DNA of 64,000 nt from Escherichia phage vB_EcoP_PE006 (OQ938541.1); one strand, 5' to 3'. Counted from the stretch's first letter, positions 9,839 through 64,000 are shown. Made by a program: numbers and translations. The notes: generated by a model not told the origin, from the sequence alone.

Positions 9839-9867
9839 TTTAAAGGGACTACAAAAGGAGGTTAGAA

Positions 9868-10359
9868 ATGGATAACGTCGCATTGCCACCTGTACAATTA
9901 AATTTAAGCCCAGCTGGAATGGAATTCATCATGAAGCATGAGGGTATGAGAACCAAGGCTTATAAAGATTCCGCAGGTATCTGGACTATATGTGTAGGGG
10001 CTACGCGCGATATGAATGGTTATCCGGTTAGACAAGGATTAACGTATTCTATAGAGGATTGTCTAGCTCTGCTAGATAGAGACACACAAGACTCTGTTCG
10101 TGCTACTCAGAAGAACATAAAGGTTCCTTTACTAATTCATGAGTTTGATGCACTCACTTCTTTCAACTTCAATGTTGGCAGTGGTGCTTTGAGCACATCT
10201 AAGTTAAGGAAGGTTATCAATGGAGACGTTAAGGGGGATGTTTATTCCGAATTTCTTCGTTGGGATAAAATAACGGTCAGGGGAGAAAAGCAGAGAAGTC
10301 AGGGTCTTCATAACAGAAGGGTTGCAGAAGCTGATCTTTACACTGAAGGTAAATATTAA
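9868..10359 (+). CDS. lysozyme, glycoside hydrolase family 24 (T4-lysozyme-like)
   Basis: FIMKHEGMRTKAYKDSAGIWTICVGAT matches the catalytic E...YKD..G.WTIG.G signature of phage lysozymes. Confidence 0.75.
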   Translation: MDNVALPPVQLNLSPAGMEFIMKHEGMRTKAYKDSAGIWTICVGATRDMNGYPVRQGLTYSIEDCLALLDRDTQDSVRATQKNIKVPLLIHEFDALTSFNFNVGSGALSTSKLRKVINGDVKGDVYSEFLRWDKITVRGEKQRSQGLHNRRVAEADLYTEGKY

Positions 10360-11184: not shown

Positions 11185-14100
11185 ATGGCGCTGTATCCAA
11201 TAAAGTCGTTAGGTGCTGTAGGCGTTATCGCTGATCAGGCTCCGACAGACTTAGCTCCTAATGCTTTCACTAATGCTATAAATGCTCGATTTGTTGAGCA
11301 GAGAGTATTTAAGACGGGGGGCAATGCCCCTCTTTCTTATGTAGACGAAGATAAGGATTTAACCCCTCTGTCTTTCGTGTCTATGCCTTTCGATTATTAT
11401 AGCGCAGGTAATAGCTTTCTTGTTGTAGGTACGGATAAGAAGTTATATAAACTGACAGATGAAAGCTTGACTGACATTAGCCGTAAGGTTGCTACAGTCA
11501 CTAAGAAGGCTTCTGCCTCAATTAAGATTTATCCAGTTGTTTCTCAGATTGTTCCTAAAGAATCAACCATCTCAATGAACTTTAATCAGACTAAGAGTCT
11601 AGAAGTTTCTCTTCTTCCTGCTGATGCTAACAATACCGATCTTGTTTGGGAGGTTAGTAATTCAACCTATGGGAGTGTTACAGTAGACCCTAGTGATTCT
11701 AAACTTGCTACTCTAACATCTTTTGAGAGAGAGGGTAATCTTGTAGTAACCATCTCTACTGCTGATGATTCTGTAGTGGCTCAGATTGCTGTGAACATTA
11801 TAGATGGTGATTCAGGCATCTTCTTGAGTCAAGATACTGTTACTATCCGTAAAGGAGGGACTACCACTCTTACAGCTGTTACTGGTAAAACCCCTGTAAC
11901 TTGGTCCAGCAATAACGCTTCTATTGTATCCGTGACCCCTAACGCTAATTCTCTAACTGCTGTTATTACTGCTAATGGTGAGGGCAATGTAACAATAACT
12001 GCTGATAACGGAACGAAAACTGCTTCTTGTGAGGTTGTTTCCATCCCTCAGATTGACAGTATCACTTTGAGTCAGTCAGATGTGATCGTTAGTAGAGGTT
12101 CTCAATACATTTTAACTGCTACCCTTTCTCCTGCTAATGCCCCTAATCAAAACATTACTTGGACCTCTTCTAATCCAAATATTGCAACAGTATCAGGGAC
12201 CAGTACACAAGGGACGGTCAACGCCCTACTCGCTGGCTTTACTGAGATTACGGCTACCACTGAAGAAGGTAACAGAGTTGCTGTCTGTACTGTACGAGTA
12301 GACTTAGCTGGAAGGGCGATGAGAACAAGTGCTATGGCATTTGCTGCACCTGCATCAGAACCAATTGAATCACAAGAGGAAGAAGTAGTAACTCCTCCTG
12401 AAAGTGAAGAGACGATTTATTTTGCTGAGCCTACGTCTGGTATTGACACATCTGGTATGTACGAAGGTAACAGCTTCTACGACTACTCTAACGTGAATGA
12501 TATTGAAGGTTTTGCAAGAGCTTCTTTACTGGCAACCCCTTTGTCATCTGTAACATTAGATGTTGTCAGCGCCTCTCTTGATGTTGGTGAAGAGATTGTT
12601 ATCACAGCTACAGCCTCTCCAGAAGGTGATTATTCCTATCAGTGGTCTGTGGATAAGACAGGTTATGTTTCTACAACTTCAGTTACTGGTAAATCTATCA
12701 AACTGGTTGCTCTTCGTAAAGGAGAGATTAATGTAACATGTACTGTCAGCCAAATGACTCAGAAGGATTACGACGCTTTTGATGACTACCCTTGGTATCA
12801 CGCTGTTATCTCTAACTGTGCAGTTGCTACAACTCACTATGAAACTCCTCAGGTAAAAGAATTCGAATCAGAATACTTTGTAGACCTTCCGGGATGGGGT
12901 GAGCAAACAGTTGTTGATAATGATGGAAACCCTTCAGTCAAGAAGTTTAACTGGAAATGTGAAAGAGTAAGATCTTTTAATAACCGTCTTTTTGCTCTGA
13001 ATATGAGAGAGGCTAATGCTTCTGGTGTTACCACTAACTACCCACTTCGTCTTCGTTGGTCTAACTTTGCCAATGAGAACAAAGCTCCTACACTGTGGGA
13101 TGACTTTGCCTACGATCGGGTTGTGTCTTCGGACTTGGCTTCTAACATCGTAGGACAGACTCAGGCTTTAGAAAATGGATATGCTGGTTACATTGACCTA
13201 GCGGACTCTAACGGCAGCTTAATTGATATCTTACCTCTTAAAGATTACTTGTTCGTTTATACAGAGTTTGAAACGTATATTGGTTCTCCGACTAATAACA
13301 CATACCAACCTCTGATGTTCAAGAAACTCTTTAATGACTCTGGTATCCTTGCTCCTGAGTGTGTGGTTGAAGTAGAAGGTAGCCACTTCGTAGTTACTCA
13401 GAACGATGTAATCCTACACAATGGTGCAACCAAGAAGTCAATTGCATCTAACCGTGTTAAGAACATGCTGATTAATGAGGTGTGTCTGGTTAACCCTCTA
13501 GCAACTCGAGTACACTTGCATCAGGATAAGAAAGAAGTTTGGGTTCTCTATGTAGGTCCGGGAGAGCCGAAAGAAAGCTTCGCTTGCACTAAAGCTGCTG
13601 TATGGAACTACGAGTTTGATACTTGGTCTTTCCGTACTATCCCTTATGCTCAGTGTATCGGTCTGGTTGATCCTCCTGTTCTAGAGAGAGGTCCAATCTG
13701 GTCTGACTTCCAAGAGATCACTTGGGATGACCCATCTATCAAAGAACTCGTTTGGAGAAAGGATGCAACAAACTTTAGACAGAGGGTTACGATAGTAGGT
13801 TCGTTCTTGAGGGGATTCTACCAAGTGGATGTAGGTGCTCTTGATTATTTCTATGACAGGCTTAATGATAAGGTTATAGAAAAACCACTGGAGATGAGAT
13901 TAGAGAGAACTGGTATGGATTTTGATAACATCACTAACGAATGGAATCAGAAACATATCAATAGGTTCAGACCTCAGACGACAGGTTCCGGTACGTATAC
14001 TTTTGAAGCAGGTGGTAGTCAATTCTCTAACGAGTATGGTCATCCACACACATCTAAGACGTATACGATTGGTGTTGATAGGCATGTCTCGGTGAGACTG

Positions 14101-57070: not shown

Positions 57071-57223
57071 TTACTCCTGTTGTTTACACTCGTCAATAAC
57101 CCACTGATAAGTGGATTGCCCAGAAAAGAAACACTGAATAAATCCAGATGTTCTCTGCGTTACCAGTGCTAGTGCACAAATCACTACCGCCGCTGCTAGC
57201 AGTTTTAAATCTAATTTAGACAT
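57071..57223 (-). CDS. small membrane protein
   Basis: 50-aa ORF MSKLDLKLLAAAVVICALALVTQ... with GAGAGG SD; stop overlaps the next SD. Confidence 0.3.
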   Translation of the reverse strand: MSKLDLKLLAAAVVICALALVTQRTSGFIQCFFSGQSTYQWVIDECKQQE

Positions 57224-57240
57224 ATTTCCTCTCATTGAAT

Positions 57241-57267
57241 TTAAAAAAGGACTCTCCGAAAAGAGTC
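57241..57267 (-). terminator. rho-independent terminator (- strand)
   Basis: - strand GACUCU-UUUCGG-AGAGUC followed by CUUUUUUAA. Confidence 0.5.
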
Positions 57268-57424
57268 AAGCTTTAAATCCAAAAAAAGATATTACCCAAT
57301 ATCTGTGGATAACCTGCTCTTAAAATATCTATCCGACGGATGTTTGAGGAACACTCCTCGCCCTAGCATCGGCCCCATACGGGAAATATATTAAGATTAG
57401 GTTAGTTGAGTCAGAATAACTCAC

Positions 57425-57448
57425 ATAGCCCTCCGGAGGGAAGGCTAT
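57425..57448 (-). repeat. conserved intergenic hairpin module, copy 1
   Basis: ATAGCC ... GGCTAT stem followed by GTGAG on the - strand; GTGTTCCTCA and AACATCCG blocks nearby; same blocks at 62279-62323. Confidence 0.4.
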
Positions 57449-57462
57449 AGGCGTTACTACAA

Positions 57463-57681
57463 CTAAAAATCACCTGATTTTACAAAATCATCACTAAGAA
57501 TTTCGTCAATCTCTTTGCTAGTCAAATCTTTCCTGAACCAGCAACAAGGAACATTCACCCATTGACCAGAGTTATTCTCTACAGAGCACAGATTCCCTGT
57601 CTTACTCTTGCATTTATAGGATTTTCCTTTATCTAGACGATAGTGTAATCTGTAAACGACAGACACAAGTGTTATCATCAC
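57463..57681 (-). CDS. hypothetical protein
   Basis: 72-aa ORF. Confidence 0.35.
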   Translation of the reverse strand: MMITLVSVVYRLHYRLDKGKSYKCKSKTGNLCSVENNSGQWVNVPCCWFRKDLTSKEIDEILSDDFVKSGDF

Positions 57682-57911
57682 TCACCTTTCTTGGCACGAT
57701 CTTTGGCAGTTTTGCCAGTGCGGATACGATGGGAAACGTTAACCAAAGTGCCACCATCAACTACGGTAACGCTCTTATTTTTAGCCAGATCAAACACGGT
57801 CTTCTCTGTGCCACCCAAGCGAATTTGCTTAGGCTCGCTGAAGGTTTGGGTTGATTTGGATTGGAACTGGAACGGTTGACGGATTGCATCAATTGCACTT
57901 ACTTTAGACAT
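57678..57911 (-). CDS. hypothetical protein
   Basis: 77-aa ORF; AAGGAA SD preceded by a hairpin plus U-tract. Confidence 0.35.
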   Translation of the reverse strand: MSKVSAIDAIRQPFQFQSKSTQTFSEPKQIRLGGTEKTVFDLAKNKSVTVVDGGTLVNVSHRIRTGKTAKDRAKKGE

Positions 57912-58142
57912 AGGGGAAATTCCTTAAAAAGTTATGGCTGCGTAGAGGGAATTCCCTACGCAAATTGGGCCGCCCACAGAGAGGCGTCATAGTACTAAAA
58001 GGAGGAGAGAAGAGGGCTTATTTAGCTACCTTTTTCTGTCCATTTACGAACCAGATAATTGAACCATCAGGCTGTCGTTGACCGAAGCCTTTCTGGTTAA
58101 TCATATCGTCATAAGAATATGCTTTACGTCTCATTTATTTTC

Positions 58143-58385
58143 CTATGGAGTTAAGATAATTTCAGCCTTACTAAACTTCTCACCAACTTCAAGAGTGTCA
58201 GCAACAGGACGGGGCACACCTGTACCCAAACAAACAGCTCTTCGATACCCTCCAGTCACAGGCATCATCAAATAGATGATCTGATTATCATCTTCTTTTA
58301 AAGTGAAGATATCAGCGATCGATAGATCTTTAACAAAGAGTTTCTTTTCTTCTTCATGATGAACTTTGATATGTATTGTGCTCAT
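58143..58385 (-). CDS. hypothetical small protein
   Basis: 80-aa ORF. Confidence 0.35.
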   Translation of the reverse strand: MSTIHIKVHHEEEKKLFVKDLSIADIFTLKEDDNQIIYLMMPVTGGYRRAVCLGTGVPRPVADTLEVGEKFSKAEIILTP

Positions 58386-58387
58386 AC

Positions 58388-58624
58388 CTACTCCTGAACA
58401 ACTGACATACGAATCATTTCAACCTGATCATCAAGGCTCTTAACAGATAGCACACCTGTGGAAAGGTTTACCACAGGAACCCAACCCCTGGCTATACCAG
58501 AGGCATTTTCAACCCTCATATAATACTGAGGGGAGGCACTTCCGTGCTGAATCACGAAAGGGTTTCCGGGAATGATTGTTTCCAATCGTACCGTATTATC
58601 CTTTTTCTTAGGGATAATCTTCAT
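58388..58624 (-). CDS. hypothetical small protein
   Basis: 78-aa ORF. Confidence 0.35.
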   Translation of the reverse strand: MKIIPKKKDNTVRLETIIPGNPFVIQHGSASPQYYMRVENASGIARGWVPVVNLSTGVLSVKSLDDQVEMIRMSVVQE

Positions 58625-58632
58625 ATTGATTC

Positions 58633-58944
58633 CTATTTAAGTTTGAGGCTAATGTTAAGGTGCATACATGCCCTGTTCTGTACAGCAGCATAGCTTCTAC
58701 CGAGCATGTCAGCCATTCTCTGAATGGACATGAACCCAGCGTTACGGATAAGGAACTGGTCTTCTTCTTTAGACCATTTAACTCGGATTGCAGCTCTTGA
58801 TATACCAAACTTAGTGCAAGCTGTATTAACTGCATTCTCCGTTACATTCATAATCTGAGCAACCTCTTGAACAGAGTACTCTTTGATTAGTCTCCGAAGA
58901 TTTTCAATCTGCATCGGAGTCCATATAGTTCTTCGAGCTTTCAT
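58633..58944 (-). CDS. putative DNA-binding protein with two helix-turn-helix-like repeats
   Basis: Two repeats of W...E.L..L.......IA..M... type (WTPMQIENLRRLIKEYSVQEVAQIM / WSKEEDQFLIRNAGFMSIQRMADML). Confidence 0.4.
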   Translation of the reverse strand: MKARRTIWTPMQIENLRRLIKEYSVQEVAQIMNVTENAVNTACTKFGISRAAIRVKWSKEEDQFLIRNAGFMSIQRMADMLGRSYAAVQNRACMHLNISLKLK

Positions 58945-59235
58945 ACATCCTCCAATTAAACATTTATATAAGACTTGCTTAGATAAAGATTCAATAAAAT
59001 AGGGGGAGGGGACGAATCCTCCCTTATCCTATTAATTAATATTGCATGTAAGATCTAACAATCGGTTGCCTTTGTAGGAATAAGCGTTATGCCAATCCAG
59101 CACTAAACTCCCGCCCCCTTAGTGGGCTGGGTTATTAAAGGGTAACGCCCTTATGGGCTAGTTACATGAATGTTAGTTTGATAGGAGATCTGAAGTCCTA
59201 TCTCAAAGGACTCTCGTAAGAATCCTTCACGATAG

Positions 59236-59427
59236 TCACCCTTTATAGGTGGTACAGATTAATGTTGCATGTCTTTGGTTATACAGTTCGAAGTAACGAG
59301 GCTTGCTCCAGTCTCTGTCTCTGGTAAATGATTGAAGGATGAAGTGTCTGTCACATCCAAGCCACTCAGAAACATCCATCGCTAGACGTATAGGAGAACC
59401 TCTGAACTCTCTTCGCTCCATAGCCAC
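59236..59427 (-). CDS. hypothetical protein
   Basis: 63-aa ORF. Confidence 0.3.
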   Translation of the reverse strand: MAMERREFRGSPIRLAMDVSEWLGCDRHFILQSFTRDRDWSKPRYFELYNQRHATLICTTYKG

Positions 59428-59576
59428 CCCTTAATATTACTTATTCATCTCTCGTCGGCTATCTCTCCAAGCCAACCAAGTGTAGGTTTTCAGCTCTTCA
59501 AAATCTTCTGGAGAGAATAGGTATTCTTTGAAGGTATCACCAAACCATTTTAAAAACTCTTCAGTCATAAAACCTC

Positions 59577-59750
59577 TTAACAAGATTGATCACAAGGCTG
59601 ATCTCCACATGTTTTACAGATCACTGGTGAATAACTACAGGCAGGATATACTGACACGCCATCAAACGTTTCGCACCCACAGTCAGGGCATTCCCCGTTG
59701 GATTCCATGTCGTCATCGTCATATACTTCACCACCACCATAGCAGCTCAT
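59577..59750 (-). CDS. small Cys-rich (zinc-binding-like) acidic protein
   Basis: 57-aa ORF MSCYGGGEVYDDDDMESNGECPDCGCETFDG...CKTCGDQPCDQSC, not in the track (<60 aa). Confidence 0.35.
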   Translation of the reverse strand: MSCYGGGEVYDDDDMESNGECPDCGCETFDGVSVYPACSYSPVICKTCGDQPCDQSC

Positions 59751-59759
59751 ATGAACTCC

Positions 59760-59981
59760 TTAATAAACTAAACCTATAGCCTTTGCATCAGGCTGAGGGA
59801 CTACTTTTGCACTAGGGCGATAGCCATCCACTGAACCATTCCAAAGGTTGACACAGGTGATATACCCATCATTCAAGTAGTCTGTTTTAATCCAGAAGTG
59901 TTTATCATGACCAAAAATACTTCCGTTTGGCAGCGTGGATAGTTCAACAGTTTTAAGGGATTGTTTAGAATCTAATTTCAT
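59760..59981 (-). CDS. small protein (paralog of 62333-62551)
   Basis: GSIFGHDKHFWIKTDY ... NGSVDGYRPSAKVVPQPD aligns with DVFSYDKRFWLMLED ... SGSVEVFGLSTTVMPRPD. Confidence 0.4.
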   Translation of the reverse strand: MKLDSKQSLKTVELSTLPNGSIFGHDKHFWIKTDYLNDGYITCVNLWNGSVDGYRPSAKVVPQPDAKAIGLVY

Positions 59982-59990
59982 ATAAGTTCC

Positions 59991-60245
59991 TTAATATACC
60001 AAGCCATGTAAGAGAAACACTCTCTTAGTTAACTCTGCTTTAGCTCTGTAATAAGCCTTAGAACCTAACAGGCGGCGTTTAACAAAGAACTTAATGTCAT
60101 TGCTAACATCTTGTATTAAACGCTCCTGTACAGCTTCTGAGGAGCTATTAATCGAATCAATTAACACCTTTGTAGACGTGTAATTCATATTACCACTCCT
60201 TACCGGTTGTAATCGTAGAGCCACCACACCACAACGCTGTATCAA
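59991..60245 (-). CDS. hypothetical protein
   Basis: 84-aa ORF. Confidence 0.3.
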   Translation of the reverse strand: MIQRCGVVALRLQPVRSGNMNYTSTKVLIDSINSSSEAVQERLIQDVSNDIKFFVKRRLLGSKAYYRAKAELTKRVFLLHGLVY

Positions 60246-60495
60246 TCACAACATTGTCTGGTGTAGACTTCTCTTCGTTGATAGAAGGGTTAGCATTAGA
60301 GCAGGTTGCTCCGTTCCAGCGCATATCAATCTCACCAGAAGGAACCTTCTCACCTTTATGCCAGCGAGATACACAAATACCTTCCACTGCTACTGCACAC
60401 CATCCATCAGGACGGCTCTGTACACAGCCTGTAAGGGCCACACAGACGATGAAGATACATGTTAAGGATATTACACCACCCCAACTCATAACCAC
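60190..60495 (-). CDS. Cys-rich lipoprotein
   Basis: Signal peptide with LTGC lipobox (…IFIVCVALTGCVQ…), then a Cys-rich mature part. Confidence 0.45.
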   Translation of the reverse strand: MVMSWGGVISLTCIFIVCVALTGCVQSRPDGWCAVAVEGICVSRWHKGEKVPSGEIDMRWNGATCSNANPSINEEKSTPDNVVIDTALWCGGSTITTGKEW

Positions 60496-60529
60496 CTCCT
60501 ATACAATTGAGCTAACGGCGCAGAATTAT

Positions 60530-60837
60530 TTATAAGGAGAAAGACTTCTTACAATCCTTCTCTTCAAAAGTGTAGTAGCCTGTTGTATCAGGGAAGTAGG
60601 CATACTTTGTTTCTTTGCCATCAATAACCATGACACGATTACCAGAAGTTGTTTCTACAAACAGAAGCCCATCTCTTACTATACCATGAGATTCTTTGAT
60701 ACCAGTTAAGCTATGCTCTTTAAGAGTGCATTGCTGAACACTCTGATACTTAACTCCAATCTCTGCACTATTAACAGAGATGATACCAATGGTTGTCATT
60801 AGTAGTAAGGTTGAGATGATAAAATTCTTTTGTTTCA
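60530..60837 (-). CDS. secreted/periplasmic protein
   Basis: Likely GTG start at ~60837 giving (M)KQKNFIISTLLLMTTIGIISVNSA signal peptide; the 160-aa track ORF extends upstream over the neighbouring gene. Confidence 0.35.
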
Positions 60838-60845
60838 CATTAACC

Positions 60846-61097
60846 TCAAGTACAAGCAGGGAGAGTGATGATTTTATACTGACCTTCGAACTCTCCAAAT
60901 AAACCCAAGAATGTAGGACTGTAAGTACCAGTACAAACAAACTCATCAAACAATGCGTTATAGCTAGGCTTAATCTTCCAAGCCCATACATAACCCATCT
61001 TGTCAATTGCAATGTAACGAGTGTTCAGAGGAACAGTCATCATCACATCATCAACTTCGATCACTTTAGTTATTGGTGCAGCTTGGAAGTTTTTCAT
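60846..61097 (-). CDS. hypothetical protein
   Basis: 83-aa ORF. Confidence 0.35.
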   Translation of the reverse strand: MKNFQAAPITKVIEVDDVMMTVPLNTRYIAIDKMGYVWAWKIKPSYNALFDEFVCTGTYSPTFLGLFGEFEGQYKIITLPACT

Positions 61098-61279
61098 ACT
61101 TTACCTTTGATAAAAATGTCATTACCACAGACACAGCATGAACGAACAACAGTAGCGCCACGCTGAACTATACGAACCTCTTCCTTAACCAGATTAACAC
61201 GAGCACCACAGCAAGGAGAGTTAACATAAGAGTAACCAGCTTGTGTATTCTTGATTGTTTGCTTAGACATTTGATTCAA
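61094..61279 (-). CDS. zinc-ribbon protein
   Basis: CCGARVNL ... CCVCGNDIF. Confidence 0.35.
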   Translation of the reverse strand: MNQMSKQTIKNTQAGYSYVNSPCCGARVNLVKEEVRIVQRGATVVRSCCVCGNDIFIKGKV

Positions 61280-61679
61280 GATCTCTCAGTTGTTTAGCCA
61301 ATTGTTCACACTCGTTGATGCAGAACGCTTCTGTTCTTGGAACCCCGTTAGGGTTGAACCGTGTCTTATCACATGCATGGGCACAATCAAATCCGATTGT
61401 ATCCAAACCACCCATCTCTTCAAGGGTGTCTTGCCATGTGACGCCACCATGAACGTCCACATAACAAACAACCTTTTCCTCTCCGTTATATCCGGTGAAG
61501 TTTTTATGTTTCAAGCTATCTGGTAACTCTACATACCCACATAAGTGGGAATTGTTCATGTGCATAATCACAGCACGAAGACCTGATTTAGTTTCCCAAC
61601 TTTTAACTATGCGTCTCATATAAGCACCTCTTGTTAGTTTAAGTAAGAGTTGTCCCTTAATTAAAACAACAAAGGCCAC
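61263..61679 (-). CDS. hypothetical protein
   Basis: 138-aa ORF. Confidence 0.4.
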   Translation of the reverse strand: MAFVVLIKGQLLLKLTRGAYMRRIVKSWETKSGLRAVIMHMNNSHLCGYVELPDSLKHKNFTGYNGEEKVVCYVDVHGGVTWQDTLEEMGGLDTIGFDCAHACDKTRFNPNGVPRTEAFCINECEQLAKQLRDLESNV

Positions 61680-61703
61680 CCGATTGGGCAGCCTTTCTTT
61701 TAT

Positions 61704-61946
61704 TCAAAGAGCATGTATTTGCAGCTCTCGAAGTTTCATAGCCACATAAGAGTTAGAAGAAACAATCCACTTATGAAAGACTACCTTAGCACCAGTTCGA
61801 GAACAGCCTAACTCTTGTGCAAGCTTACTGAACACATCACCATCTTCTGCAAAGAAGAAAGGGGCACAACGACAGATCGCTTTTTGTTCTTTGTTAGTTA
61901 CCATATGTCCAGTTGCCTTGCTTGTTACGGATGACTGACATTGCAT
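61704..61946 (-). CDS. hypothetical small protein (possible HTH)
   Basis: 80-aa ORF; LAQELGCSRTGAKVVFHKW HTH-like segment. Confidence 0.3.
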   Translation of the reverse strand: MQCQSSVTSKATGHMVTNKEQKAICRCAPFFFAEDGDVFSKLAQELGCSRTGAKVVFHKWIVSSNSYVAMKLRELQIHAL

Positions 61947-62295
61947 GAATCCAGAAGCCTTCCAGTTTCAGAGCACCGTTAGCTACTGCATCCATACGTT
62001 CAGGGCGGTTCATACGTTTGGTTGATACTTTCATACCTATCTCTCTTTGTTAGTGGAGGCATTATTGCCAGTTGATATAGCGGATGACTCTTATAATAGA
62101 GCCACCTACTCTACAAACTGGTGAAGACTCCCTACCCCTAGGAAGTCTCCTGAATCCCAAACCAATACGTACCCCTACATATCGGAAAGTCTTTCGAAAA
62201 TTAACAGGTTTTAGTCTAGCACCGGATGTTCGAGCAAGCTCTCCCTAGCGGTGTGGCATATGCCTGATTAATAAGTTAATGAGGAACACCCTCAC

Positions 62296-62323
62296 ATAGC
62301 CCTCTGATAAACACAAGGGCTAT
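62296..62323 (-). repeat. conserved intergenic hairpin module, copy 2
   Basis: ATAGCCCT ... AGGGCTAT 8-bp stem, 12-nt loop, then GTGAG / GGTGTTCCTCA on the - strand, directly after a stop codon. Confidence 0.4.
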
Positions 62324-62332
62324 AAGTCGATG

Positions 62333-62551
62333 TTACTTTTGAGATAAACACAGATCAGGACGTGGCATAACAGTGGTTGATAGACCGAAGACTTCAACAG
62401 AACCACTGCTCAAGTTAGCAGCCTTACACAAACCATCAGGGGTTTTATCTTCTAGCATCAGCCAGAAACGTTTATCGTAAGAGAAAACATCACCACCCTT
62501 AACGTCTTCTGCATTTGCATATTTAGGATAATCAACTACTTTAATGTCCAT
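62333..62551 (-). CDS. small protein (paralog of 59760-59981)
   Basis: 72-aa ORF; see paralog alignment. Confidence 0.4.
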   Translation of the reverse strand: MDIKVVDYPKYANAEDVKGGDVFSYDKRFWLMLEDKTPDGLCKAANLSSGSVEVFGLSTTVMPRPDLCLSQK

Positions 62552-63908: not shown

Positions 63909-64000
63909 TAGCTGGGCCGTTGTTATCAGAACTTGCTACCTCCTGTTTTACGGGCATAAAAAAGCCCCAGCCGTAGCCGGGGCAAACCTGAAAGCAACAC

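Follow-up and report, generated by a model that had tools for sequence, protein, structure and literature searches.

The small-gene region of Escherichia phage vB_EcoP_PE006 (OQ938541.1) carries two copies, A and B, of one structured RNA element. They are paralogous and lie in two intergenic regions of the - strand. It is nearly certain that this module is an RNA under selection for its fold. It probably controls the fate of the early transcripts in which it sits, and it matches no described RNA family.

The window, that is, the whole stretch of 64,000 nucleotides analysed here, belongs to a Kuravirus (a phiEco32-like coliphage), with small early genes on the - strand. According to published work, the early transcripts of phiEco32-like phages are polycistronic and made by the host RNA polymerase. 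Region A (62337-62035, - strand) is located between the phi32_113-like and phi32_112-like genes, and region B (57458-57240, - strand) between the phi32_91-like and phi32_90-like genes. In both, the stop codon of the upstream gene is at the start of the region or adjoins it. A second conserved spacer with a hairpin and a terminator is present at 59235-58945.

The two copies have a common architecture. A long hairpin (P1) is followed, ~30-40 nt downstream, by a junction of two hairpins (P3 and P4). The AGUAAC at the start of P1 forms or adjoins the upstream gene's stop codon in most copies. P3 is a 3-bp hairpin with an RUAU loop. P4 is a stem with an invariant 7x7 internal loop, CUAGGGx / yAACAUC, enclosing an inner GAG...CUC hairpin; this internal loop is probably paired non-canonically. 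Copy B also has a long-range helix (P2), by which the junction is closed. We obtained the folds with RNAalifold, using 11 sequences for B and 8 A-type sequences for A. The parts of copy B are as follows.

57240..57458, - strand: whole module B (P1, three-way junction, T1 and T2)
57416..57457, - strand: P1, long hairpin with a GUAAC/GUUAU base and UAUAGCCUU/GGGGCUAUG (RNAalifold)
57391..57404, - strand: 5' strand of P2, UAACCU .. UCUUAA, pairing with 57310-57323
57374..57383, - strand: P3, mini-hairpin CCC-GUAU-GGG
57333..57372, - strand: P4, with outer stem CCGAUG/CGUCGG
57360-57366 / 57339-57345, - strand: P4 internal loop, CUAGGGC / AAACAUC
57346-57359, - strand: P4 inner hairpin, GAGG..CCUC
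57310..57323, - strand: 3' strand of P2, UUAAGA .. AGGUUA, then invariant UCCACAG
57281..57304, - strand: T1, A/U-rich hairpin AGAUAUU-GGG-UAAUAUCU with a U7 tract (read from the sequence)
57240..57277, - strand: T2, intrinsic terminator UUUAAAG..GACUCU-UUUCGG-AGAGUC-CUUUUUUAAA (terminator scan)

P1 of B has no U-tract. In the 15-sequence alignment its 15 pairs are 97% paired; one shows double changes and several are G-U. The UCUUAA/UUAAGA part of P2 has changes on both sides in 3 of 6 pairs, and its UAACCU/AGGUUA part is invariant. After P2, B presents AGGUUA-U-CCA, which is missing from A and from a phage-like contig, L171. The C-G of P3 becomes G-C in the Salmonella 7-11-like phages. T1 is found only in Kuravirus and Suseptimavirus, and is absent in the 7-11-like phages. 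T2 lies 15 nt upstream of the ribosome-binding site of the next gene. It is kept in all 15 B copies, with compensatory changes, and the 7-11 and SU7 records carry it as an annotated terminator.

Copy A consists of these parts.

62035..62337, - strand: whole module A (model matches)
62285..62334, - strand: P1, long hairpin (RNAalifold, 8 A-type sequences)
62255..62264, - strand: P3, GGC-AUAU-GCC
62219..62254, - strand: P4, with outer stem ACACCG/CGGUGC
62242-62248 / 62225-62231, - strand: P4 loop, CUAGGGA / GAACAUC
62232-62241, - strand: P4 inner hairpin, GAGC-UUG-CUC
62123..62205, - strand: A-specific 3' domain with GUUAAU, H5 and H6 (RNAalifold, some compensatory changes)
62155-62199, - strand: hairpin H5 of this domain, loop GGGG
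62123-62150, - strand: hairpin H6 of this domain, loop CUAGGGGUAG

The 5' base of P1 in A (AGUAAC) contains the stop UAA of the upstream gene. The P3 of A-type copies is GGC-AUAU-GCC or GCC-AUAU-GGC. GUUAAU could be the 3' strand of P2, whose pairing in A is uncertain. Three motifs of the 3' domain, CCUGU(U)AAU, AAAGACU and AUAUGUAGG(G)GUA, recur after the copy in L171.

The alignments show where the constraint falls. The nucleotides of the internal loop are identical in 24/24 distinct copies, except for x and y, which co-vary. The x/y pair is A/G in 13 copies, C/A in 9 and A/A in 2, and never C/G. This switch is seen even between otherwise identical copies. In the core, 97% of the cells are paired and 7 of the 14 pairs present double changes; in P4, these affect 4/6 pairs of the outer stem and 2/5 of the inner hairpin. 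The covariation score of the core is 0.47, against 0.16 in shuffles and at most 0.10 with the partners slid. For the full B module (A6 alignment, 15 sequences), 98% of the cells are paired, with double changes in 11/55 pairs. Across 18 sequences, 26 positions of the core are invariant. Besides the stem-closing pairs (the outer G-C, GAG/CUC and the C/G of P3), they cluster in the internal loop and the loop of P3. The fold fits the early-transcript strand, because G-U pairs occur on that strand (for example, the invariant U-G at columns 107/138). P1 is a stable helix of 16-20 bp in the coliphages, compared with 8 bp for its equivalent in L171.

The likeness between A and B is more than chance, since a covariance model of B alone recovers A. 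This model was built from the B-type copies of other phages, leaving out the window sequence, the A copy and L171. It gave 81.5 bits for B of the window (E 8e-17) and 32 bits for A (E 2.5e-5), with no further match at E<=1 in 92 kb. A combined model with all filters off found exactly two sites in the window, with 79 and 53 bits. The next-best match in the window reached just 11.8 bits.

The element is present in ~100 Kuravirus/Suseptimavirus records and in 6 Salmonella phage records. There are two copies per genome in Kuravirus and Suseptimavirus, one in the Salmonella 7-11-like phages and one in an unrelated metagenomic phage. Module A was found in 97 phage records at >=80% coverage. Module B aligns with the 7-11-like phages over ~237 nt at 67-72% identity. 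No other non-coding segment, and no other part of the small-gene region, is alignable between these two families of phages. L171 has one copy, with identical loops. The 8 kb of this contig encode no detectable protein in common with the window, and share only an Srd-like protein with the 7-11-like phages.

The whole window gave no match to the 4227 models of Rfam 15 at gathering thresholds, including ribozymes, riboswitches, phage RNAs, tRNA and tmRNA. With permissive filters (E<=10), 57150-57500 and 62000-62360 gave only three chance matches of 15-17 bits in the terminator region. ARAGORN found no tRNA or tmRNA gene in the window, and recognised no cloverleaf or tRNA-like domain.

The two regions had been singled out in an earlier note on this DNA for a set of shared sequence blocks. 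An exact-string search confirmed that shared blocks exist in both, on the - strand. The ATAGCC..GGCTAT hairpins are at 57425-57448 and 62296-62323, and the only two copies of GGGCTATGTGAG in 64 kb are at 57420-57431 and 62291-62302. P1 of B includes the first hairpin together with the GTGAG listed after it. GCTAGGG (57361-57367 and 62243-62249) and AACATCCG (57337-57344 and 62223-62230; AACATCC) had been taken as separate blocks. They are in fact two strands of one internal loop. GTGTTCCTCA was correctly placed at its first site (57345-57354), but its second is one base away, at 62280-62289. Nor is it a shared block: it is not homologous between A and B, and the 10-mer match is a coincidence. 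In A it consists of the 3' strand of the P1 extension (AACAUC/GGUGUU), whose GGUGUU it overlaps, plus a spacer. In B the 10-mer is the inner hairpin's variable loop, which in other phages reads AACAA, ATACT or ACAGT. The reported lack of a U-tract is true for the first hairpin. However, B has two terminators with U-tracts (57304-57281 and 57277-57240) just beyond the blocks. Finally, a lack of further copies had been named as a point against the reading. The genome has only two, but the element recurs in three phage genera and one unrelated phage. We consider that conservation across genera outweighs the lack of extra copies.

The blocks had been explained as RNA processing or stability sites, or as binding sites for a phage regulator. 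The RNA part agrees with our results. The compensatory changes in every helix, the G-U pairs on this strand only and the variable lengths of the hairpin loops indicate an element acting at the RNA level on the early-transcript strand, which suits RNA sites more than a DNA operator. The half-sites are 8 to 16 nt apart, a variation that makes a phage regulator binding to DNA unlikely. An RNA-binding factor, from the phage or the host, is a possible partner of the module.

What the module does is less clear than that it folds. We tentatively propose that it is a factor-binding cis RNA governing terminator read-through at the boundary between variable early genes and conserved core genes. The folded core would be the docking site of a trans factor; candidates are the host RNA polymerase itself during elongation, a conserved host factor and a phage protein. 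Binding of this factor would set whether transcription passes the intrinsic terminators downstream of the core. Together with T1/T2, copy B would thus act as a regulated gate from the hypervariable small early genes to the conserved core early genes, and copy A would serve the next terminator, at 61696-61671. The closest analogy for such a gate may be HK022 put, or lambda nut just ahead of tR1.

T2 lies within 25-45 nt of the RNA in 15/15 B copies from three genera, which favours read-through. The genes phi32 90-69, 3' of T2, are still of the early class (PMC4281155) even though T2 lies upstream; the B locus has no room for a promoter between T2 and the next ribosome-binding site. In 7-11, the early genes form a single long transcript from two promoters at the genome end, and with regard to antitermination its authors wrote that a strategy "remains to be defined" (PMC8948821). 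Published sigma70 promoter predictions include none close to the 7-11 module (PMC4331800). The two paralogous copies per genome, each behind a gene end of the early operon, also mirror putL/putR (PMC9378689). Against read-through, the copies A and L171 have no directly following terminator. In the closest relative, MN05, three terminators (L180 11345, 9870 and 9785) are located between a consensus early promoter and copy A, so the element cannot be a general solution for read-through. The promoters lie ~19 kb upstream of the single copy of the 7-11-like phages, in contrast to the promoter-proximal put and nut. We found no convincing case of mutually exclusive terminator/antiterminator pairing. 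It is also conceivable, at similarly low confidence, that the ~60-nt P3-P4 core represents a new class of functional RNA independent of phage proteins (a ribozyme, an aptamer or an RNA-only, polymerase-binding antiterminator) and punctuates early transcripts. If true, 7-11 and phiEco32 would have in this core the read-through device that was proposed for them and is still missing.

A rather doubtful alternative is punctuation by processing. Here RNase III, RNase E, RNase P or a phage enzyme would cut the early RNA in or beside the module; the upstream message would then have P1 as a shield for its 3' end, and the downstream message the compact junction for its 5' end. The stable 16-20 bp hairpin without a U-tract right at the stop codon agrees with this, as do the position in long intergenic spacers of a polycistronic early transcript and the second spacer with hairpin and terminator. 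Another intergenic hairpin of 7-11 was considered by its authors a probable processing site or reverse-transcriptase stop (PMC8948821). Nevertheless, only two copies exist among dozens of gene junctions, and the P1 equivalent of L171 has just 8 bp. The 13 invariant unpaired nucleotides and the co-varying non-canonical pair, in phages that otherwise share almost nothing, represent a constraint far above that of RNase III or RNase E sites. Nothing points to RNase III in particular: P4 is too short and too interrupted, and such invariant unpaired nucleotides are unlike T7-type signals. Small ribozymes are common in phage intergenic regions, and the P3-P4 core might cleave the early transcript unaided. 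It is compact, its helices vary freely around the fixed loops, and those loops are identical in a phage without common proteins, as a self-contained activity would allow. Yet a new self-cleaving ribozyme is improbable, given a very narrow distribution and no Rfam ribozyme match even at E<=10.

Two further readings, both quite improbable, start from the terminators of B. The junction could be the aptamer for a metabolite or signalling nucleotide, and T1/T2 the expression platform, ahead of the conserved amidoligase / glutamine amidotransferase operon downstream. An aptamer-like core does directly precede the terminators and this operon, and AAGAG (P2 3' strand) could pair with CUCUU (5' half of T2), a weak alternative of 4-5 bp read from the sequence. 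However, this pairing is not conserved, no Rfam riboswitch matches, and A and L171 have no adjacent terminator and precede unrelated small ORFs. Or B could be freed as a 3'-end-derived small RNA or decoy ending at T1/T2, which would titrate or base-pair a host RNA or protein (e.g. tmRNA, ProQ/Hfq or a defence sensor). B does end in canonical hairpin terminators with U-tails, and a ProQ/FinO protein is encoded in the same arm of the 7-11-like phages. The modules also have perfect complements of 11, 11 and 10 nt to E. coli tmRNA positions 141, 249 and 122 (P ~8e-4 by mononucleotide shuffling; the background is 20 such runs per 64 kb). This P value is inflated, because tmRNA was chosen after several RNAs were tried. 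Moreover, the complement at the loop fails in the 9 copies with x=C. The second shrinks to 6-8 nt in the Salmonella phages, and its remainder is the P2 helix itself. A has no terminator. Least probable, and very much so, is a DNA-level element: a recombination cassette shuffling early genes (as the T4 PeSL elements), an origin or an operator. The 5' flank differs between phages, with homology from exactly AGTAAC. One metagenomic phage has no phi32_91-like gene, and there the module provides the stop codon. The P1 hairpins of A and B are almost the same in Suseptimavirus, suggestive of gene conversion. But recombination at the border may be a mere by-product of conservation. With G-U pairs on one strand only, compensatory changes and loops of variable length, the module looks selected as a folded single strand, and no promoter is conserved within it. 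B has a single promoter-like site, CTGACT-18-TATATT (57414-57385), which SU7 and 7-11 do not conserve, and promoter-like sites show no excess over shuffles.

Several known systems resemble the module in part. The early RNase III sites of T7 are endonuclease punctuation of a polycistronic early RNA, where the upstream message ends in a protective hairpin. Like the module, these signals (R0.3-R1.3) are internal-loop hairpins in intergenic spacers of an early transcript made by the host polymerase. They differ in having five sites with little constraint on primary sequence, compared with two copies and 26 invariant core positions across phage families. T7-type sites have an irregular duplex of ~20 bp or more at most early junctions, and P4 has 6+5 bp in two copies. 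T4 PeSL-type cassettes combine a stem-loop with a conserved early promoter at many small ORFs; the module has two copies only. Transcription-attenuating riboswitches share with copy B a conserved multi-helix core, with covariation and invariant unpaired nucleotides, then an intrinsic terminator. In contrast, the module shows no coherent regulon, conserved antiterminator alternative or Rfam match, and the terminator is absent in two of three contexts. Lambda nutR is similarly placed, right after an early gene and just ahead of a terminator (tR1) that separates immediate and delayed early genes. The module differs from it in that there is no boxB-type hairpin with a GNRA-like pentaloop, the boxA-like UGCUC..AACA lies within a helix and is not conserved in B, and no N-like protein was identified.

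HK022 putL and putR are cis-acting antiterminator RNAs that bind the zinc-binding domain of the RNA polymerase β' subunit, and host RNA polymerase alone suffices for them (PMC9378689). By its published description, put consists of two long stem-loops arranged as a V, with a triplex (PMC9378689). The predicted fold of the module looks different, with a 3-bp hairpin beside a stem with a symmetric 7x7 loop and a long P1 before it. Besides, the hosts of the module are virulent podophages, its copies lie away from the promoters, and no terminator adjoins copy A. The put RNAs are two paralogous copies per genome in early operons, of roughly 60-70 nt, and the core of the module has 60 nt; putR comes after an early gene and ahead of a terminator, as module B precedes T1/T2 (PMC9378689). 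Both are also tiny phage-restricted families, in which helices co-vary and bulges and internal loops are conserved (PMC9378689).

Two intergenic regions of the minus strand, modules A and B, carry copies of one RNA element. The earlier note had seen in them a series of shared blocks directly after a stop codon. An exact-string search finds every block on the minus strand where it had been placed, bar a one-base shift: GTGTTCCTCA is present, with its second site at 62280-62289, one base from the first estimate. Both regions begin where the upstream ORF ends, and the 12-mer GGGCTATGTGAG, shared by the two, has no other site in the 64 kb. The shared module is real, and better than was first thought. 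The common element stands, but its division into blocks had to be corrected, as GCTAGGG and AACATCC form one loop. Nor is GTGTTCCTCA homologous between the two sites: it forms the 3' strand of the extension of P1 (the long hairpin) in A, and the loop of the inner hairpin in B, where other phages have AACAA, AUACU or ACAGU.

62337-62035, minus strand: module A
57458-57240, minus strand: module B
57304-57281, minus strand: T1, terminator after B
57277-57240, minus strand: T2, terminator after B

Folded separately, A and B take the same local shape: outer stem, 7x7 internal loop and inner hairpin. This agreement makes GCTAGGG and AACATCC the 5' and 3' strands of a single internal loop (CUAGGGx/yAACAUC, with x and y its variable positions). 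The element runs in the order P1, a spacer with AACU.A..UAAUC, P3 (a hairpin of 3 bp with a RUAU loop) and P4, the stem holding the 7x7 loop; P3 and P4 form the core. P1 has GUAAC/GUUAU (B) or AACAUC/GGUGUU (A) at its base and UAUAGCC../..GGCUAUG at its top. The outer stem of P4 is CCGAUG/CGUCGG in B and CACCG/CGGUG in A, and the inner hairpin is GAGG..CCUC in B and GAGC-UUG-CUC in A. A long-range helix of B, P2 (UAACCU/AGGUUA + UCUUAA/UUAAGA), closes a three-way junction. Its equivalent in A (AUUAAC/GUUAAU) is less certain, and is disrupted in phiEco32 itself. Alignment with relatives shows that the A/B homology spans AGUAAC to beyond P4. The upstream sequence differs among phages, and homology begins exactly at AGUAAC. 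The UAA within it is a frequent stop codon of whatever gene precedes the module, so a terminating ribosome would occupy the base of P1.

The core alignment comprised 18 sequences of A and B types, from three genera and metagenomic copies. In it, 97.2% of cells are paired and 7/14 pairs changed on both sides. The covariation score was 0.473, against 0.159 +/- 0.021 for shuffled alignments and at most 0.10 with slid partners. Full B modules (n = 15) have 98.2% of cells paired, with double changes in 11/55 pairs. G-U pairs occur on the minus strand, such as the invariant U-G in the outer stem of P4, which assigns the structure to the early-transcript strand. The x and y positions flanking the inner hairpin also co-vary, not by Watson-Crick rules: A/G is found in 13 distinct copies, C/A in 9, A/A in 2 and C/G never. 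The switch is seen between copies otherwise identical. From general knowledge of RNA motifs, x/y is probably a non-canonical, sheared pair stacked on the inner helix. Finally, a covariance model built solely from B copies of other phages was searched against 92 kb. It matched B of the window (81.5 bits), the metagenomic phage-like contig L171 (51.2 bits, E = 9e-10) and A of the window (32 bits, E = 2.5e-5), with no other match in the 92 kb. These results show that A and B are copies of an RNA element of the early transcript that is folded, under selection, and specific in the sequence of its unpaired nucleotides.

About 100 phiEco32-like coliphages (genus Kuravirus) match window 57200-62400 by BLAST; the closest are NJ01, pEC-N1203-2Af.1 and MN05, at 95-100%. 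Annotated relatives code the small genes on the strand equivalent to the minus strand of the window, as the early genes phi32_90 to phi32_117. The earlier note had proposed a search for further copies. They exist in other phages, and a combined covariance model, with filters off, finds only two sites in the window. The same two sites are found in the remaining right arm of MN05. Kuravirus and Suseptimavirus have both copies, A between phi32_113 and 112 and B between phi32_91 and 90. The Moazamivirus-like Salmonella phages 7-11, SeKF_80 and pSal-SNUABM-01 have only B in the 39-kb early arm. Between them and Kuravirus, B is the sole non-coding segment alignable at the nucleotide level, and nothing else aligns within the small-gene region. 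In the 7-11-like carriers, the early arm also encodes a ProQ/FinO-family RNA-binding protein and a Srd-like anti-sigma protein ('decoy of sigma70'); the loci are L138 13041-13769 of pSal-SNUABM-01 and L139 9405-9824, and, for the distant contig L171, 5665-6030. We detected neither protein in the window.

Scanning IMG/VR, JGI/ENA metagenomes and GTDB genomes by pattern yielded, besides L171, the lineages already named plus chance matches. Scored by the model, chance matches stay below 24 bits and true copies reach at least 46 bits. A loose pattern, GCTAGGG-N6-30-AACATCC, was discarded after giving 120 chance loci in IMG/VR; tighter ones gave known phages and chance matches below 24 bits. A search of 5,426 E. 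coli genomes and of the PLSDB plasmids gave no host homologue. L171, the exception to the known lineages, is contig JBOFGJ010000684, binned as Flavobacterium. Its tandem TTGACT-16-TATATT promoters suggest that the host is more likely a proteobacterium. The copy lies after a stop codon amid a run of small ORFs. Its loops are identical, its outer stem differs (AAUAGCG/CGCUAUU) and its P3 is CCC-AUAU-GGG. The A-type blocks CCUGU(U)AAU, AAAGACU and AUAUGUAGG(G)GUA recur 3' of its core. In its 8 kb, L171 has no detectable protein in common with the window, and shares with the 7-11-like phages only the Srd-like anti-sigma protein (36% identity). A protein-level relative of this phage (L181) is without a copy.

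The surroundings of the two modules differ. T2 (GGCUCU..AGAGUCC-U6, flanked by UUUAAAG/UUUUUUAAA) follows B in 15/15 copies and is kept with compensatory changes. T1, an A/U-rich hairpin with a U-tract, precedes it in Kuravirus and Suseptimavirus. T2 stops 15 nt short of the phi32_90 homologue's ribosome-binding site and marks where a conserved gene block, still of the early class, begins; its genes code for amidoligase, glutamine amidotransferase and ATP-grasp proteins. Two more conserved hairpins and then a variable segment lie 3' of A, and the next terminator (61696-61671) is beyond two small genes. This 3' part is polymorphic (window 62082-62122 versus L001 8811-8940 and L004 3240-3373). 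A short version, containing the hairpin GGCUCUAUUAUAAGAGUC, is found in the window phage, NJ01, MN05 and O18-011. In most Kuraviruses another segment, some 60 nt longer, takes its place before homology is regained at UAUAUCAACUGG.

Two other sites of the minus strand deserve mention. A second long intergenic spacer (58945-59235), upstream of a D5-like regulator gene, is conserved with the Salmonella 7-11-like phages. Of its two conserved blocks, the hairpin CGUGAAGGAUUCUUACGAGAGUCCUUUGAG shows a compensatory change in SeKF_80 (GGAUUC/GAGUCC to GGGUUC/GAGCCC). The other, GUUAGAUCUUACAUGC...GGGAGGAUUCGUCCCCUCCC-CCUAUUUUA, is terminator-like. The covariance model of our element (R1) has no match in this spacer, which may be another conserved early-transcript RNA element. 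At 60496-60529, GCGCCGTTAGCTCAATTG is a 5' remnant (acceptor and D arm) of tRNA-Arg(tct). This tRNA is present at the equivalent place in MN05, phiEco32, SU7 and others, and the rest is lost in the window phage; ARAGORN found nothing in the window, no tRNA included.

No paper that we found, and no RNA family database searched, describes the element. Rfam 15 gave zero matches at gathering thresholds, and at E<=10 both regions gave chance matches to the terminator only. Computational tests established membership in none of the put, RNase III signal, riboswitch, PeSL cassette or Rfam families. Several readings were rejected. A N4-like hairpin promoter, guessed from the gene layout, was dropped because BLAST shows a Kuravirus, which uses host RNA polymerase. 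The phiEco32 gp36 promoter (tAATGTAtA) is absent from the modules; AUAUGUAGG in A has ATGTA alone in common with it. A sigma70 promoter inside B (CTGACT-18-TATATT), by which B would be an sRNA gene in its own right, is not kept in SU7 or 7-11, and others predict none there. A small ORF of 31 codons (57424-57329) is ruled out by 2-nt and 7-nt indels and compensatory substitutions. The likeness to an 11-nt tetraloop receptor (CCUAAU..GUAUGG in B) is missing from A and L171, and a boxA-like UGCUC..AACA lies inside helix P4b and is unconserved.

Perfect complements to E. coli tmRNA (ssrA, L179) were also considered, two of 11 nt in A and one of 10 nt in B.

62239-62249, minus strand: complement of ssrA 141-151 (helix-5 loop)
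62046-62056, minus strand: complement of ssrA 249-259
57308-57317, minus strand: complement of ssrA 122-131 (end of tag ORF)

The loop strand GCUAGGGAGAG is one of them and pairs with the helix-5 loop. Three such runs in 542 nt, against 0.13 expected, are statistically odd (mononucleotide-shuffle P of about 8e-4; background of 20 runs per 64 kb). However, copies with x=C lack the complement, and in the Salmonella phages it has decayed. Its loss where the motif varies means that antisense pairing to tmRNA is probably a coincidence.

The SU10 paper describes early genes 69-125 as transcribed by host sigma70 RNA polymerase, with promoters between genes 120 and 121 (PMC4281155). In the Salmonella relative 7-11, two genome-end promoters give one long polycistronic early transcript, for which a strategy of antitermination 'remains to be defined' according to its authors (PMC8948821). 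Downstream of a consensus sigma70 promoter, the coding strand of the early arm has at least five to seven intrinsic-terminator-like hairpins.

63964-63983, window, minus strand: terminator-like hairpin
61671-61696, window, minus strand: terminator-like hairpin
59004-59023, window, minus strand: terminator-like hairpin
57240-57304, window, minus strand: terminator-like hairpins
11318-11345, MN05 (L180), coding strand of early arm: terminator-like hairpin
9853-9870, MN05 (L180), coding strand of early arm: terminator-like hairpin
13954-13927, MN05 (L180): consensus sigma70 early promoter, TTGACA-16-TATAAT

In MN05, such sites are about two-fold above shuffles (30 vs 13.8), and three terminators lie between the consensus early promoter and A. 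With these hairpins downstream of the promoter, early transcription must either read through or restart often.

We tentatively propose that the element is a factor-binding cis element. A trans factor would bind the folded RNA, and this binding would set the read-through of the following terminators. HK022 putR, or lambda nutR ahead of tR1, would be its nearest working analogy. We favour this reading because conservation in three genera unites the RNA with T2 in a single block, in a unit whose downstream genes remain early. Moreover, a phage with no detectable proteins in common (in the 8 kb at hand) retains the loops, pointing to a host partner that is conserved, e.g. RNA polymerase. Against it, neither A nor L171 has an adjacent terminator, terminators also precede A, and in 7-11 the element is a long way from the promoters. 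A processing or stability signal, also suggested in the earlier note, would fit P1 and the position after stop codons. Nevertheless, it leaves the invariant loop and the low copy number unexplained, and we give it slightly less weight than read-through. A ribozyme is improbable, a riboswitch or a sRNA/decoy quite improbable, and a DNA cassette very improbable.

phiEco32 and 7-11 are model phages for the takeover of host RNA polymerase. The passage of their very long early transcripts through internal terminators is acknowledged to need explaining (PMC8948821), and the element is a concrete and mutable candidate. Its core of 60 nt, in which the loops are invariant and a non-canonical pair co-varies, is kept from coliphages to Salmonella phages and in one unrelated phage. 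B lies exactly where variable early genes meet core early genes, adjoining a conserved terminator. Whether it proves to be an antiterminator, an attenuator, a ribozyme or a processing signal, the element would be a new RNA family for Rfam. It would also offer a simple and experimentally cheap in vitro test system with E. coli RNA polymerase.
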